A stretch of 64,000 bases of DNA from Podarcis pityusensis (Eukaryota): assembly GCA_964106645.2 (NCBI GenBank), contig OZ067041.1. The stretch is one strand, 5' to 3'. Positions 4,178 through 62,066 of this stretch are shown piece by piece. Every line of letters begins with the position of its first letter. Positions within the stretch are counted from its first letter, which is position 1. The notes under the pieces are model-generated. The model saw only the letters and a list, made by a program, of their open reading frames with translations, searched no databases and was not told where the DNA came from. Both the position numbers and the translations under genes were made by a program.

Positions 4178-4395
4178 CACAACTACAGAGGAAATAAAAT
4201 AAATAAATAAATAGTCCAGTAGCCCGTTAGAGACCAACTAAGTTTGTTCCGGGTATAATCTTTCGTTTGCAAGCTTATACCCAGAACAAACTTAGTTGGT
4301 CTCTAAGGTGCTTCTGGACAATTTTTTATTTTTTATTTTTATTTTGACTGTGTCAGACCAACATGGCTACCTACTTGAATCCACAACTACAGAGG
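4178..4395 (+). mobile_element. Penelope-like element pLTR foldback insertion, older subfamily, hammerhead core lost at the apex
   Basis: Imperfect inverted repeat (TAGAGACCAACTAAGTTTGTT / AACAAACTTAGTTGGTCTCTA), tail GACTGTGTCAGACCAACATGGCTACCTAC, 14-bp TSD CACAACTACAGAGG at 4178-4191 and 4382-4395. Confidence 0.75.
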
Positions 4396-4709: not shown

Positions 4710-4954
4710 TATTAAAAAGCTACAGATAGGTAGCCGTGTTGGTCTGCCATAGTCAAAATAAAAAAAATCCTTCCAGTAGCACCTTTAAGACCAACTAAGT
4801 TAGTTCTTGGTATGAGCTTTCGTGTGCAAGCACACTTCTTCAGATACTTCTTCAGGTATCTGAAGAAGTGTGCTTGCACACGAAAGCTCATACCAAGAAC
4901 TAACTTAGTTGGTCTTAAAGGTGCTACTGGAAGGATTTTTTTTATTAAAAAGCT
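4710..4954 (-). mobile_element. Penelope-like element pLTR foldback insertion (young)
   Basis: Perfect 91-bp inverted arms at 4757-4847 and 4856-4946 around an 8-nt loop; unpaired tail 4722-4756; 12-bp TSD TATTAAAAAGCT at 4710-4721 and 4943-4954. Confidence 0.85.
4856..4893 (+). ncRNA. Minimal type I hammerhead ribozyme motif (mirror copy on the - strand at 4810-4847)
   Basis: GTAT-CTGAAGA-A-GTGTG(CTTG)CACAC-GAAA-GCTC-ATAC: stem I GTAT/ATAC, CUGANGA core, stem II, GAAA, palindromic AGCT in place of stem III; predicted cleavage after C4889. Confidence 0.75.
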
Positions 4955-5955: not shown

Positions 5956-6743
5956 GCAGCACTAGCCTGATGGTCCATCAGAGCTCAGATGATATATTTT
6001 ATAAGTCAGGTTTCCTGATTTTCAAGACATTTCCTAGAAGAAAGTTCCACTGATGGGAGTGGGGGTTGTTAAGGAATGCAGTTAATAGGTTAACTCTTCA
6101 CGAATCAGCAGAGGTGGCTCATTCACCACAATGCATCTGCAGGCATCTTGTGACTATCTTATGTGTTACTGGGCAGATTTGGCGAGTAACTTTGTGTTTA
6201 AAAGGTCTCATGTTAGACCCTACTGTGTGGCTTGTGTTAGGAGATTGTAGGAATCTATCTGCTGGAAATGTGGATTCCAGTGAAGCCATTTTGAAAAAGT
6301 TCTCTGAGAAAGAAGTTGGAAAATTCCCAGACTTTCGAACTCAGAGAACTCTAGCAGTTGCAGGGCTTTGCAAGCAACTCAGCTTAGAACGTCTCTGTGG
6401 ACTTTAACACAGTAAGAACTTGGAAACAAAGAGCACTCTCTGGGCTCAGAGGGAGAGAAGATTACTTGTAACATCTATTATTTGCATGTATATATAGTGG
6501 TGTATGTTGGTGTTGGCCTAGTAGAGACAACTCTGCAAAAGTCTGATTTCTGTGGTGAGCTTTTGGGATGCATACACCCAACACCCCAACAAGGGTGTGA
6601 CTTCTTAATATCATTTGTCAAACTGCTCAATAAATTGAGTATTGGGTAGCTACAACACAGCCCATTTCAGAGGTGCACATTTCCCTTTGCCGGCCTTGAA
6701 ATGGGGAAAGGAAAGGGTTCAAAAAGCTCCAACGCTATGCTAC

Positions 6744-7001
6744 TATAGAATTGTAGAGTTGGAAATGACCCTAAGGGTAATCTAGTCCAATCCTCTGCAA
6801 TGCAAAAATCTCAACTAAAGCATCCAAGACCATCCAACCTCTGCTTAAAGATCTCCAGTTAAGGAGAGTCCACAACCTCCGGAGAGAGACCGTTCCACTG
6901 TCCAGCAGCTCTTACTGTCAGAAAGTTCCTCTTGATGTTTAGTCGGAATCTTTAGTCCGAAGTCATTGGTTCGAGTCCTACCCTCCAGAGCAGGAAAAAA
7001 C
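6744..7001 (-). mobile_element. CR1 LINE 3' fragment
   Basis: Reverse complement of the CR1 3' end (ATAGAATTGTAGAGTTGGAA...TCTAGTCCAA) plus ORF2 C-terminal sequence. Confidence 0.8.
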
Positions 7002-7351
7002 ACAGCGACTGACACAGACCGGTATCCAACACCAGCACTGAAAATCATAGTTTGGATCGCGTCTTCCCGTCCTGGAGGTTCACAAGGCAGCCATTCTTCC
7101 CTCATTTCCTTTTGCAGCCGAAGCCCAAGCTCATCGGAGGCCTCCAACCAGCAACACAGCTCCTTCCTGCGCCACCGCCAAGTTCATGGACGGACTCCGT
7201 CTCCAACTTCGAGGGGACGGTGCCTCCTTTGCGCCGGCAGAGGGCGCCGCGGCTCACGGTTTGGCCGCCGCAGTGGGAACGGCAGAGCCGGCTGAGAGCG
7301 GAGGCGCTGGGAGGCAGCGGGCGCCGCTGGGTGGCCGCTCCCTGCGCCGCT

Positions 7352-7358
7352 TATATAG
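7352..7358 (+). promoter_or_regulatory. TATA box
   Basis: Isolated TATATAG in GC-rich context, ~35 bp upstream of an initiator-like TCATCAGTC. Confidence 0.6.
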
Positions 7359-7384
7359 CTCCGCATCCCTTTGCGCGCGGCGCT

Positions 7385-7515
7385 GTCATCAGTCGGGGCG
7401 GGGGAGCCGGAGCTGCGCGAGTGCCGCGGCTCGGAGTGCGAGGACTGGCGAGGGGGGGAGGCGGCTCTTTGTCCTGCCAAGGGAGGAACAGGAGGCAGCT
7501 CCTCCGCGGAACCAG
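7385..7515 (+). other. Candidate non-coding first exon (5' UTR); start approximate
   Basis: Lies downstream of the TATA box, contains no ATG, ends at donor CAG|GTAGGT (GT at 7516-7517). Confidence 0.6.
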
Positions 7516-8964
7516 GTAGGTCCCTTCTCCAGCATCCTTTCCTCCTCGCTTAACGCGCACACTTTGGGTACCAACCCGCCAGAGATGCTCGCTGCAGCAT
7601 CCTTTCAGGGAGGTGATGCTCAGCAGCCGCGCGTTGGACTTAACGGCGGGGTGGGGTGGGGTGCGGTGCGGGCAGAGGACGGGGCGGCTTCGGGGGTCCC
7701 TGTGCCCACTTGCGCGCGTGGGGGGGGGGGAGAGAAGAGATGTTGAGAAAGGCTGTGATGGGTCAGGTTCACTCGAAGGCTCTGGGCGGTCTGCCGGCTT
7801 CCCTCGGATAAACCTCCCCCGCCCGCCCCCGCGGCAGCTTCTCAACATTATTTCCTCCTGCGCAAGTTTTTAAGCCTGCTGGCTCTCTTTTCCCTCCTTC
7901 TTCTCCCCAGTCACCTGCTCCTAACACGAGGAGGTGCCTTCAGGACGCCAAAGCGGCTGGTTCTCAGCGTAGGACCCAAACAAGCCCTCTCCTCTCCCCA
8001 TCACTCCCTCCCTCCCTCTCCAACATATACACTCCCGGGCAGGCAAAGACTAAATTAGCCGAATAGACATAACAGCAGCAGCAGCAGCAGCACCAAAATA
8101 ACCTCACGCCCGGCTTTTTTTGTTTTTGTTTTTGTGGGCAGATTGACTCTGGCAGTGATCATCCCATCCCCGACTCCGCTCCCCTTTCCCCGACAGCTGT
8201 TCAGATGGGATAGGAAAGAGGAGGTGCCTTGCTTTCTTTCATGCAGGCGTATTATCTGCTCCCCCACCCATCGACCCCAGTCTTAGGGGGCAAAAGAGAC
8301 TCTTCTCTGTCTCATTCTCTCCCCCCCCCCGCCCCATGTTGCCTGCAATAACAAGCAGCCTCTTTCGGTATCTTCCTAGCAGGAGAACAAAAAGTGGTCG
8401 GTGGCCTCTGCCTCGTGGAAGCGCTGCGTTCAGTTTCCTTCTTAGGCTGGACAGCCCCCTGCGCCCAATGATCCGCCTAGGCAGCGTGGAGGTGCTGGTG
8501 AATCCAACCACCATAGATGGTGGCATTGTCTGCGCAGGATACTTGACTTGTAGTGCTGCTGTGTATTTGAGCTGACTGGCAGAGGTAGCCAACGTGGTGC
8601 CCCCTCTATATGTTGGACCATCCAGCACCATGAGTAATGGTCAGAGAAAATAGGAGTGGGAATTCACCAACATCTGGAGGATGCCTGCTGTAAGGCTTTA
8701 CCTCTGCCGATTATATACAGGACTACCTATGGCTTGTAAATTGGTTTATGATATTGAATGCAGTCTATTGTTGACACGGGTCACTATTCCTGTTTTTGAT
8801 GGAGAACTGCAGTTGAGTGCATTAGCCACATGATGGAAAAGATGCTTAATAAGTGACTTTTTTTAGAGAGAGAGTGACAGGGAGAATAATCTAGGAAAAT
8901 GTATTTATCCTGCAGTGATGTAGAATTCCCTGTGCACATTCTACCTTATTCATATGAACTCAGT

Positions 8965-10693: not shown

Positions 10694-10843
10694 ACTGGGA
10701 TAGCTCAGTTGGTAGAGTATGAGACTCCTAATCTCAGGGTTATGGGTTCAAGCCCCATGTTGGGCGGAAAGATTCCTGCATTGCAGGGGGTTGGACTAGA
10801 TGATCCTTGTGGTCCCTTCCAGCTCGACAATCCTATAGTTCTA
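10694..10843 (+). mobile_element. SINE with tRNA-Lys(CTT)-like head and CR1-type 3' tail
   Basis: TAGCTCAGTTGGTAGAGTATGAGACTCCTAATCTCAGGGTTATGGGTTCAAGCCCCATGTTGGGCG closely follows vertebrate tRNA-Lys(CTT); then ATTCCTGCATTGCAGGGGGTTGGACTAGATGA...GGTCCCTTCC. Confidence 0.85.
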
Positions 10844-50321: not shown

Positions 50322-51535
50322 GTCTACATTGCCTGGTAGTGGCCCGCCCTGCCTGGAGATGTCAGGGATTGAACCTTCCACAAGTGGGGTAGATGTTCTA
50401 TCTCTGAGCTATCACCTTTCTGCTGAAGGCAGCTATGGGCTGGTGTATGCTATGTTTACACCTTACTAAATATTTTTGCCTCTTGTGTACACTTAACTAC
50501 ACAAAAGCAGTTCTCCTGTGATTAAATGGCAGCTCTTTTTCATAGCCTCCAATTCTGCTTCTGAGTGGCCCAATAATATAACAAACCTTAATCACCAGTC
50601 CCAAGATTTTGCTACATTTTTAATGCATCCATGAAAGTGTTAGCAGGACTTGCAGCCTTATTATTTTGGAGTTTATGTGATTTGCTTTGCTTTACCCAGT
50701 CAGTCTGAGCGAGTTGGAGCTGTTAACGCATAGATATATTTTTTGGCCTGTCTCTGTGTGAGATTCCTTTGCTCACTGCACACACACACACAAAGAAAAT
50801 GGCTGGGTACATTTAAGGTTTATAGGATTGTGGAGGATCTACTGAAGATTAAAGAGGACAGGAAAGTCAAATGAGCACTGTGTTAACTTTTGCTTGATAA
50901 AGGGATTTGTATAGCAGTCTGCTGCAAAAGATAAGACAAATGGGATAGCAGATGACCAGCTGAAAAATTTGAGAGTGATATTCATTGCTACATGTAAGAA
51001 TTGAGAATATGATCTTGATTCACTTTCATTTTAGCTCTTTATAGTCAATTCAATTTATTTAGTATCAGACCGAATAGAGCAAGAAAGCCACTGCCTCCGG
51101 CAAATAATTTCTCTCTAACAATTTTCCTTGTTAAGGCACTATGTATAAAAAAAGCTTTTATAGGTCAATTGATATAAGGCTGCTCCTTCATTTTAGACCT
51201 TTATTATCCCATTGATTTGATGCTTAAGATGAAGTGAAAGGGAAATACCATCTTACTGAATATAGTATCTTTCATCCCAGTTGTTCCTCTAGTACAGGGA
51301 TAGGGAATCTGTGGTCCTCCAGATTTCATTGTTCTTCAAACCTCACCAGCCCCAACCAGCATAGGCATTGTTAAGAGATGATGGAAAGTGAAAAACTCAC
51401 TATCCTGCTCTGGCGCTTCTCAAACAATGAAAGGGATCTTTTCATTATCCACTGAGATTTCATGAGGCACAGCCTCCACTGGGGATGCAACCCATACCAA
51501 ACAGAAGACAGCTATTTGAGAATGAGGGTGGTACT

Positions 51536-54500
51536 TTAAACAGATGAGACAAAAGACATTTGAGTCGGCAAATAAGTGTGGTAAACTGTTGGCTTGGCAA
51601 ATGAAAAAAAGACAAAAACTTAATACCATTACGAATTTGGAAGTAGAAGGAAAGAACATACAGAATCCTGTGGAAATTAGAAAGTGCTTCCAGAGGTATT
51701 TTAAACAACTTTATACACAGGAGAAGCAGAAAGAAATGGATATTGATAAAATTTTGAAAATGAAGGGACTACAAAAAATTTCTCAAGAAAATAAATTAAT
51801 GCTGAACTATAAAATAACGAAACAGGAAGTAGAAGGGGCCATTCAGAATATGCAATTAGGTAAATCTCCAGGACCGGATGGACTGACTTCAAGATATTAC
51901 AGATCTCTGAATGGTTAATACAACCTTTAAAGGAAGTCTGTAATGAAATACTTGAAGGGAAAAGGGCACCAGAGTCGTGGAAGGAAGCTTACATCACACT
52001 TATACCGAAAACAGAGACTGAAAAGACACAACTCAAGAATTACCGCCCCATATCATTGCTTAATGTGGATTATAAAATTTTTGCAGATATTTTGGCTAAA
52101 AGACTAAAAAAGGTGTTAATGGAAGAAATTCATAAAGATCAAGCGGGCTTTCTCCCGGGCAGACATTTGTCTGACAATACGAGGAATATAATTAATATTT
52201 TAGAAAAACTACAAGTGAAGATTAATACCAAAGCAGTTTTGATCATTGTGGATGCGGAGAAAGCTTTTGACAACATTTCTTGGAGTTTCATGAAGAAGAA
52301 TTTATTGGGGATGGGGGTGGGTCAAGGCTTTGGAAACGGTATAAGTGCAATTTATTCAGAACAGAAGGCCAAGTTAATTGTGAACAATGTAGTGACGGAA
52401 GAATTTAAGATTGAGAAAGGAACACGACAAGGTTGCCCAATCTCCCCATTGCTTTTTATATCGGTCTTGGAGGTTTTGTTAAATATGATTAGAAGGGACC
52501 AATTGGTAAAAGGTATACAAGTGGGAGCCAAACAGTACAAATTTAAAGCATTTGCTGATGATTTAGTATTGACTTTACAGGAGCCAGAATCTAGCACTAA
52601 AAGAGTATTAGAACTAATTCAAAAATTTGGTCAGGTAGCAGGTTTAAAGTTGAATAAGATGAAAACTAAGGTTTTAGAGAAGAACCTAACAGAGATTGAG
52701 AGAGAGAAGTTTCAGAAGGAGACAGGACTGACACTGGTTAAGAAAGTGAAATATTTAGGGGTTAATATGACTACTAAGAATGTGAATTTATTTAAGGATA
52801 ATTATGAAAAATGTTGGAATGAAGTGAAAAAAGATTTAGAAATATGGTCAAATTTGAAGTTATCGTTGTTAGGCCGAATTGCTGTGATAAAAATGAATGT
52901 ATTGCCAAGAATGCTGTTTTTGTTTCAAACACTGCAAATTTTGGACAAAATGGACTGTTTCAAGAAGTGGCAGAGAGATATCTCCAGATTTGTCTGGCAG
53001 GGCAAGAAGCCTCATATAAAATTTAAGATATTAACTGATGCTAAAGAAAGAGGCGGATTTGCCCTGCCAGACTTAAAACTTTATTATGAATCAGCCGCTT
53101 TTTGTTGGCTGAGAGAATGGATGCTCCTTGAAAACACGGATGTTTTGGATTTGGAAGGTTTCAATAATGTATTTGGTTGGCATGCATATTTGTGGTATGA
53201 TAAGGTTAAAGCACACAAAGCGTTTAAAAACCATATTGTAGGAAAAGCACTGTTTAATGTCTGGATAAGATATAAGGATTTGTTAGAAAATAAAACCCCA
53301 AGATGGTTGTCACCAATGGAAGCAAAGGCTCAGAAAAAACTCAATATGGAGGCCAAATGGCCGAAGTATTGGGAAATTTTGGAACAAGAGGGTGACAGAT
53401 TAATACTGCAGAGCTTTGAAAAATTAAAAAATAGAGTACGAGATTGGCTCCATTATTATCAAATAATGGAGGCATATAATTTGGATAAAAAACTAGGCTT
53501 CCAGGTGGAAAAATCAAAGTTGGAAACAGAATTGCTAGACCCTAAAGTTAAGAAATTGTCAAGAATGTATAACTTGCTGTTGAAATGGAATACTCAAGAT
53601 GAAATGGTGAAATCTGCTATGATTAAATGGGCACAAGATGTTGGACATAATATTATGATGGCCGACTGGGAACAGTTATGGACCACTGGTATGAAATTTA
53701 CGGCATGCAATGCCTTAAAAGAGAATTTAATGAAAATGATTTATAGGTGGTACATAACACCAGTCAAGCTTGCAAAAATCTACCATCTGCCCGATAACAA
53801 ATGTTGGAAATGTAGTGTAACTGAAGGTACATTTTTTCACCTTTGGTGGACATGCCCAAAGATTAAGGCATTCTGGGAGATGATCTATAATGAAATGAAA
53901 AAGGTATTTAAATATACCTTCCTGAAGAAACCAGAGGCCTTTCTCCTGGGCATGGTCGGCCAATTGGTGTCAAAGAAGGACAGAACTTTCTTTATGTATG
54001 CTACAATAGCAGCAAGAATACTTATTGCAAAACATTGGAAGACACAAGATCTACCCACCAGGGAAGAATGGCAGATGAAGCTGATGGACTACATGGAACT
54101 GGCGGAAATGACTGGCAGAATCCGAGACCAGGGAGAAGAGTCAGTGGAAGAAGATTGGAAAAAATTCAAAGTATACTTACAGAAACATTGTGAAATTAAT
54201 GAGTGTTAGAAGGATGCTGGAATGAAGTTATATGGTTTTAGTAGAAATGCAACAAAGAATTAAGTAAAAGTTGATTGATAACGGGTTAAAATGAAAAAAT
54301 TTAAGGTTAGACCGTTAAGATAAATTATAGGAAAAAAATGAAGAAAGATGGGAAGAATTTGCTGAAATAGTGAATAGAACTAGAATACAAAAAAAGGGAG
54401 GTGTGAGGAGGTCGATGAAACAAGTAAAGGAAAGGTAAAGATATGGAATATTGGATGTGTGTTTTAGTTCTCTTTTTGTTTCTTTTTGTTGTATTGTTGT

Positions 54501-61801: not shown

Positions 61802-62066
61802 GTCCAAGGCACTAGTTACAGATAGGTAGCCGTGTTGGTCTGCCATAGTCAAAATAAAAAAAATCCTTCCAGTAGCACCTTTAAGACCAACTAAGTTAGT
61901 TCTTGGTATGAGCTTTCGTGTGCAAGCACACTTCTTCAGATACACTGAAGAAGTGTGTATCTGAAGAAGTGTGCTTGCACACGAAAGCTCATACCAAGAA
62001 CTAACTTAGTTGGTCTTAAAGGTGCTACTGGAAGGATTTTTTTTATTTTGTCCAAGGCACTAGTTA
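61802..62066 (-). mobile_element. Penelope-like element pLTR foldback insertion (young)
   Basis: Perfect 96-bp inverted arms at 61850-61945 and 61955-62050 around a 9-nt loop; 17-bp TSD GTCCAAGGCACTAGTTA at 61802-61818 and 62050-62066; arms and tail match the 4710 copy. Confidence 0.85.
61957..61994 (+). ncRNA. Minimal type I hammerhead ribozyme motif (mirror copy on the - strand at 61906-61943)
   Basis: GTAT-CTGAAGA-A-GTGTG(CTTG)CACAC-GAAA-GCTC-ATAC, identical to 4856-4893. Confidence 0.75.

Follow-up and report, generated by a model that had tools for sequence, protein, structure and literature searches.

A Young Head-to-Head Insertion from a Neptune-Type Penelope-Like Element in Podarcis pityusensis and Its Probable Origin by Priming from Both Target Ends

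Within a window of 64,000 nucleotides from Podarcis pityusensis (assembly GCA_964106645.2, contig OZ067041.1), by which we mean the whole stretch of DNA that was analysed, positions 61802-62066 hold an insertion that is real and young and that is absent from the compared runs. Taking identity and origin as one joint claim, we consider it probable that a Neptune-type Penelope-like element (PLE) supplied the 5' unit, which is copied here head to head and in ORF-less form, and that the copy was built on site by twin-primed synthesis. The unit present in the insert comprises a hammerhead, a leader, and the first codons of the ORF, the last forming the so-called tail. As a single insertion it is ordinary, and it is the family that is useful as a mechanistic record.

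Results

Anatomy of the Insertion

The coordinates of all features are collected in Table 1; unit positions are counted from window position 61943, which is unit position 1 in the minus-strand reading. Two perfect arms of 96 nt enclose a loop of 9 nt, and the tail is found on one arm only. That a PLE tail consists of the first ORF codons has already been described (PMC3846280, in its accessible text).

Table 1. Coordinates of the insertion, of related copies, and of the possible host gene start within the window.
Feature	Position	Strand	Remarks
Target duplication, left copy	61802..61818	+	17 nt apparent; single copy at empty site
PLE tail, on one arm only	61815..61849	-	start codon 61846-61844 and first ORF codons
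Tail-bearing arm	61850..61945	-	leader and hammerhead of the element, up to the predicted transcription start
Minimal type I hammerhead motif	61906..61943	-	own descriptor
Junction loop	61946..61954	.	short duplicate of adjoining arm sequence
Tail-less arm	61955..62050	+	terminates at the inner start, near unit position 94
Minimal type I hammerhead motif	61957..61994	+	predicted cut 61990/61991
Target duplication, right copy	62050..62066	+	repeat match; single copy at empty site
Sister insertion, same subfamily	4710..4954	.	12-nt duplication, tail, 91-nt arms, 8-nt loop
Older diverged head-to-head copy, opposite orientation	4178..4395	.	14-nt duplication, most of hammerhead gone
CpG island	7001..8000	+	candidate splice donor 7515/7516; possible host gene start

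A sister insertion with perfect arms (4757-4847/4856-4946) and direct repeats of 12 nt (4710-4721/4943-4954) lies in the same window. An initial sequence-only reading had described the copy under study as identical to this sister in tail and arm, and indeed 61817-61943 and 4721-4847 agree at 127 of 127 bases, with the exact match ending on both sides. The differences it had listed in arm length (96 vs 91), loop, and flanks were likewise found, and its conclusion that the two are separate insertions rather than a segmental duplication stands: the flanks of the two insertions are unalignable (local scores 19 and 22), and the empty site described below carries a single copy of the repeat. The older head-to-head copy belongs to a related subfamily, is about 78% identical, and is separated from the young sister copy by 315 bases.

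On each strand the insert carries a minimal type I hammerhead, with a CUGAnGA and GAAA core, a UH site, helices I and II, and a helix III stub; four of four arms fit our own descriptor. At the gathering threshold, the only Rfam match in the window is a tRNA-like one outside the insertion, and the hairpin and hammerhead families are both unmatched. The label "hairpin ribozyme" given to the motif in the sequence-only reading is therefore a misnomer, as each arm holds a hammerhead-type core and the Rfam hairpin family is unmatched. According to the accessible text of PMC4209133, minimal hammerheads of metazoan PLEs occur as opposite-strand pairs 100-700 bp apart, and the motif found here shares with them the core, the extra base before helix II, the 4-bp helix I, and the palindromic stub of helix III. 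Those pairs are presented there, so far as that text goes, with no mechanism, and the hammerhead here is a candidate ribozyme. The folded insert has a predicted energy of about -190 kcal/mol on either strand, so that hammerheads in a host transcript would be locked within the duplex.

Recency and Abundance

The site before insertion can be read directly: In single contigs of three runs (X1, X2, and X3), 61801 joins 62050 with only one repeat copy, and a fourth (X8, organism C) also has the empty site with a few gaps. X1 and X2 stem from two studies of organism A, which, with word shares of 0.87 and 0.86, is likely the window's species; X3 is organism B. The comparison for presence or absence across resequencing runs that the sequence-only reading had suggested thus gave the empty site in four of the four runs compared, out of 23 listed, two samples being likely of the same species. 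The filled allele is represented by the assembly only; among the matches listed, no contig carries it, and rare variants are lost in contigs.

The genome matches 61 window bases exactly at 1,209 places, a 33-nt tail of a sister subfamily at 1,003, and an 18-nt tail motif at 6,058. Head-to-head junctions of the window type occur 738 times, the reversed controls 0 times. Together with the empty site and the intact ORFs reported next, the 1,209 matches uphold the earlier proposal that the family is target-primed, recent, and abundant.

The Source Element

A protein search, in which 150 of 6,248 candidates were scored, yielded open frames of at least 900 residues in many cases, and in most of the 14 long-ORF loci that were fetched the ORF is flanked by the unit on either side. 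At one of them, L139, the unit matches at 127 of 127 bases and lies beside a stop-free ORF of 910 amino acids. In Pfam, the source ORF matches RVT_1 above the cut-off (46.6 bits, E 4e-12), and GIY-YIG at 21.7 bits (E 2.5e-4), just below the cut-off of 22.6. A CX4CxxC linker is positioned at residue 770, about 40 residues ahead of the GIY-like motif. A CX2-5CxxC motif upstream of GIY-YIG is a trait of Neptune and Nematis in the accessible text of PMC8557442; judged by its sequence, the source is accordingly an EN+ PLE, Neptune-type by its CX4CxxC linker.

The further hallmarks of such elements are present as well. The source copies have a single ORF that encodes RT and, at its C-terminal end, a GIY-YIG endonuclease; the unit flanks this ORF on both sides as a pLTR, recurring about every 3.0 kb; and the tail contains the ATG and consists of the start codon and the first ORF codons. 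An inverted 5'-truncated copy adjoins the 5' end, with 123 of 169 sampled loci being two-armed. Longer copies run upstream of the unit into an ORF with the GIY-YIG domain, and there, by eye, a TATA-like box precedes an Inr-like TCAGT by about 30 nt; the palindromes are devoid of this upstream promoter-like part that is seen in the longer copies. A search with an 11-nt TATA pattern gave a count near background. To judge from these motifs and from the pile-up of arm ends, the element RNA would start at the TATA/Inr-like site.

Starts and Stops of the Arms

Two samples of young insertions were analysed. Set A consists of the first listed matches to the 61-nt query on contig C1 (90 loci, reduced to 86 by excluding 2 duplicates and 2 complex loci), with an anchor that admits only loci whose tail arm extends as far as position 59. 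Set B consists of the first listed matches to the 33-nt tail of the sister subfamily (90 loci, of which 7 complex or cut-off ones were dropped to give 83); it leaves out 3 matches that belong to a single tandem array, as well as second hits where a locus was already represented, and our predictions for it were written before examination. A third set of 52 hairpins overlaps A and B and is independent of neither.

ORF-less palindromes, in which both arms are short, make up 90 of the 169 loci. Three loci on contig C1 (L094, L100, and L186) seemingly have a single arm, yet show a second-arm stub of 10-20 nt before the duplication, and two-armed events are therefore undercounted. Several other arrangements were observed. 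Two tails or three arms occur at L025/L154, L035/L265, L188, L291, and L299, for which jumps between templates or successive insertions into a single site are possible; the pairs L084/L085 and L197/L198 have identical insertions and flanks 10-12 kb apart and are local segmental duplications postdating the insertion; and at L002, L010, and L018 other repeats have inserted within one palindrome arm.

The arms have two fixed starts, at about unit position 130 with the tail and about 93 without it: Tails end at 124-139 (mode 130), and 114 of 120 tail-less arms terminate within 78-101. At their other end, arms that reach +5 stop between -5 and +5 in 45 of 102 cases in set A and 75 of 109 in set B (120 of 211 together), compared with 1.5-5% per 11-nt bin elsewhere. 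The most frequent stop is -1, after which the next base of the cDNA strand is A in 40 of 44 arms, the element itself having T, a count that is partly confounded by the other arm. In the arms of both sets ending at -1, AC follows on the cDNA in 15 of 44; a telomerase-related RT could have re-added this dinucleotide on reaching the end of its template, a reading confounded by templated inserts. The full-length arm of L139 stops at position 1; of the other ORF-bearing units, nine continue beyond this point in the upstream direction as partial tandems and one is truncated at position 84. The stop site has the look of a splice acceptor as well, yet the junctions share no upstream exon sequence, which disfavours a spliced-RNA boundary.

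Template RNA cut by the hammerhead was considered as a separate class and rejected, as genome-wide the predicted cut has 17 junctions, no excess over the control windows (30 and 28), whose patterns differ somewhat from the cut window in subfamily reach. Each sample contains an excess of loci with both arms ending past the predicted cut (6 and 5). Symmetric arm ends are explained better by local self-complementary sites than by a hammerhead-cut template.

The Target Site

Target repeats of at least 10 nt flank 145 of the 169 loci, with a mode of 12-13. In the copy under study, the 17-nt repeat shares 1 and 5 nt with the element ends, so the true duplication may lie anywhere in the range of 11-17 nt and the repeat shows no variable stagger; a 12-nt duplication is compatible with both young copies in the window. 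Here its core is likely 61803-61814, the remaining repeat bases overlapping the element ends. The duplications of variable length that had been read from 17 vs 12 nt find no support: When ambiguous bases of this kind are allowed, a length of 12 nt is compatible with 121 of 147 sites, more than any other, 11 nt with 107, and 13 nt with 79.

Unambiguous left boundaries have A (37 of 61) followed by C (37 of 61), unambiguous right boundaries G (29 of 40) followed by T (23 of 40), with p from 3e-4 to 9e-9 for these preferences against background. The full motif with 12 nt between AC and GT is realized at 22 of 147 sites, and its inner part, C and G, at 48. The target of L139 is an exact AC-12 nt-GT, the sister copy at 4710-4954 has GC-12 nt-GT in the host bases, and the copy at 61802-62066 has AG-12 nt-GT, thus AG rather than AC on the left. 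These data show a symmetric AC-12 nt-GT target preference, which is not a strict site.

Discussion

Proposed Mechanism

In the mechanism that we propose, a dimeric endonuclease would nick 5' of GT on each strand, leaving 12-nt 3' overhangs. Each 3'-OH would prime reverse transcription of the element RNA at one of two internal start sites, and on the 5' unit copy the resulting cDNAs would reach about 130 and 95 nt before running off the RNA 5' end. Host microhomology-type end joining, accompanied by short templated inserts, would then connect the two like-stranded cDNA ends, and the palindrome would be built anew at each site. We regard on-site twin-primed synthesis of an ORF-less head-to-head PLE unit as the probable explanation of the insertion. 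On its fully specified form, in which a dimeric GIY-YIG enzyme cuts AC-N12-GT, both overhangs prime, sometimes on two RNAs, and the arms are strong-stop-like run-off pairs, our judgement is evenly balanced.

This proposal draws on the relation between the two arms. In pairs of unequal length the tail-less arm extends further 5' in 58 of 78 cases, by up to 1.5 kb, which a fold-back from the tail arm could not produce, and the tail arm does so in 20 (p 2e-5); the bias is 35 vs 9 in set A and 23 vs 11 in set B (p 0.058, weak in the replicate alone). As the tail-less arm often has sequence that the tail arm lacks, and the tail in turn is missing from the tail-less arm, priming on the element must have taken place at both target ends. 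The loops, often short duplicates of nearby sequence, comprise 44 different sequences among 52 copies, so that the palindrome looks like a by-product built anew rather than a self-copying family, and three recurrent loops accompany different arm ends. Having neither promoter nor ORF, the product is likely a dead end.

Whether the two arms are synthesized independently of each other is a question on which the observations point in both directions. In favour are locus L178, whose arms belong to two different recurrent haplotypes, the fact that either arm may be the longer, and many centres that are self-complementary with no loop (for example, 6 of 17 at AGCT). Against it, arm haplotypes are concordant in 46 of 46 scorable hairpins of the 52 (shuffle mean 14.8), and four private variants are common to both arms, all in set B and 0 in set A; these four compare with 34 one-arm variants in about 13.9 kb, many of the latter being CpG decay. 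Moreover, arm lengths are coupled: Among 123 two-armed loci, 32 have both arms long, 90 both short, and 1 is mixed, with about 19.5 mixed loci expected. These three observations favour one RNA or source, or a fold-back, and the coupling is left unexplained by the twin-priming model.

The same concordance, shared variants, and coupling, together with the bias toward a longer tail-less arm, are what one would expect if both ends were primed and one cDNA, usually the tail-less one, then folded back, copied itself, and joined the other short cDNA by homology, and self-priming has been suggested for palindromic PLE junctions in the accessible text of PMC3846280. We nonetheless consider this course of events unlikely in view of the 20 of 78 pairs with a longer tail arm and the two haplotypes of L178; in addition, the unpaired centre measures 0-2 bases in 26 of 52 hairpins, and several are even palindromes of 2-4 nt, which is hard to achieve within one strand. 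A simpler variant, in which a single tail-primed cDNA folds back or an antisense RNA primes itself and the centre is later trimmed as an unstable palindrome, would agree with the coupling and with the reading of head-to-head polarity as self-priming on an antisense template (PMC3846280, accessible text). It is quite improbable: The tail arm should then be the longer or equal one, or trimming should be symmetric, which the 20 vs 58 split contradicts, and the fixed second start and the symmetric target remain unaccounted for. Copying of the palindrome as a whole, as a SINE-, retrozyme- or MITE-like mobile unit, would fit the 127-nt identity of the window copies and the 738 junctions, yet this is very improbable given the diversity of loops, the recurrent loops with different arm ends, the lack of upstream promoter-like motifs, and the common ends of short and long two-armed insertions; MITE-type copying, which entails fixed termini and a shared interior, was rejected on the 44 loops in 52 copies and the variable ends. 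That no contig among the matches listed holds the filled allele might suggest an assembly artefact or a segmental duplication, a notion barely credible for an insert that is bounded by a duplicate of the exact sequence found singly at the empty site, that has unrelated flanks, and whose sister loci carry target repeats in 145 of 169 cases.

Twin-primed synthesis, to which we return as the preferred reading, has a counterpart in L1 elements, in which both target nicks prime cDNA and an inverted junction with microhomology results, the L1 arms being non-overlapping. Our element works like L1 twin priming, though in a different form, since here the arms cover the same sequence instead of non-overlapping halves. 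Twin priming of the classic, non-overlapping kind was rejected for this family: a nearly tail-only arm was found in just 2 of 83 loci of set B.

Comparison with Known Systems

Much of what the insertion displays is already published, namely the architecture, the tail, and the opposite-strand hammerhead pairs (PMC3846280, PMC8557442, PMC4209133, each in its accessible text). Known EN+ PLE insertion units have an inverted 5'-truncated pLTR and a tail of 30-40 nt, and they share with the copies studied here the head-to-head inverted pLTR, the short target duplication, the tail of first ORF codons at one end, and TATA/Inr-like motifs in the pLTR (PMC3846280, PMC8557442, accessible text). Unlike those units, 90 of the 169 young insertions here have the minimal ORF-less form. 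The accessible text of the same two sources attributes the inversion to self-priming and the tail to resolution by the endonuclease, with the AC-12 nt-GT motif absent from the account.

The closest biochemical reference is PAc, the Poseidon element of Anolis carolinensis, which in vitro nicks and extends both strands, starts reverse transcription at two internal positions by which the tail is defined, and does not depend on hammerhead cleavage (PMC11167929, accessible text). PAc and our element are alike in the nicking and extension of both strands, in a predicted dimer, in the two starts, and in having no need of hammerhead cleavage, all of them proposed in our case from genomic copies. The mechanism put forward here links the published PLE architecture with this in vitro behaviour. 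They differ in that PAc belongs to the Poseidon clade and our element has the CX4CxxC linker; in that PAc prefers ATT, vs the cut before GT that the copies suggest here; and in that the start site of PAc shows no strand difference (PMC11167929, accessible text). In the accessible main text of that work there is no mention of target duplications, stagger, or inverted insertions.

Non-LTR retrozymes are likewise short, non-coding, hammerhead-bearing, and PLE-derived (10.64898/2026.07.22.740005, accessible text). They are head-to-tail tandems thought to propagate, whereas the copies here are head-to-head and seemingly built anew; with arms in this orientation, an identity as non-LTR retrozyme was rejected.

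Our search of literature available without subscription listed no paper that states twin or head-to-head priming or the AC-12 nt-GT motif for PLEs. What the locus adds is the empty site, the replicated run-off pile-up, the two-haplotype event, and the symmetric target motif.

Host Locus

The insertion lies between the CpG island (Table 1) and a large downstream coding exon, a frame of 781 codons on the plus strand that starts about 21.5 kb beyond the window (L147:2222-4564, at about 26,559,500 of contig C4 in G000). The first Atlas match of this exon is MTUS2-like (0.84-0.87), which serves as a lead only; the assignment agrees with what we take to be the features of that protein, and Pfam gave matches for 0 of 5 candidate host exons. 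The MTUS2-like exon likely belongs to the host gene of the insertion, and on this arrangement of the sequence a position within a 5' intron of that gene is plausible.

Two other features of the window were observed. Positions 51526-54209 (plus strand) contain two long frames of 130 and 781 residues that resemble a LINE reverse transcriptase, the 781-residue frame being stop-free. The tRNA-like Rfam match mentioned above is located at 10701-10758 (plus strand), is probably the head of a tRNA-derived SINE, and has similar repeats that recur in the window.

Conclusion

PLE integration, the inverted ends, and the one-sided tail are still treated as open in the accessible text of PMC11167929, PMC3846280, and PMC8557442. 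If the proposed mechanism is true, a single process would account for the inversion of the pLTR, for a tail on one side only, and for the duplicated target, and roughly every second new insertion would add a perfect hairpin to the genome. In thousands of near-identical young copies, the cut site, the stagger, the starts, and the stop can be read, and each is testable in vitro. For the lizard itself, a segregating element that adds perfect inverted repeats of 90-100 bp to introns would be a potential standing source of dsRNA and unstable DNA.
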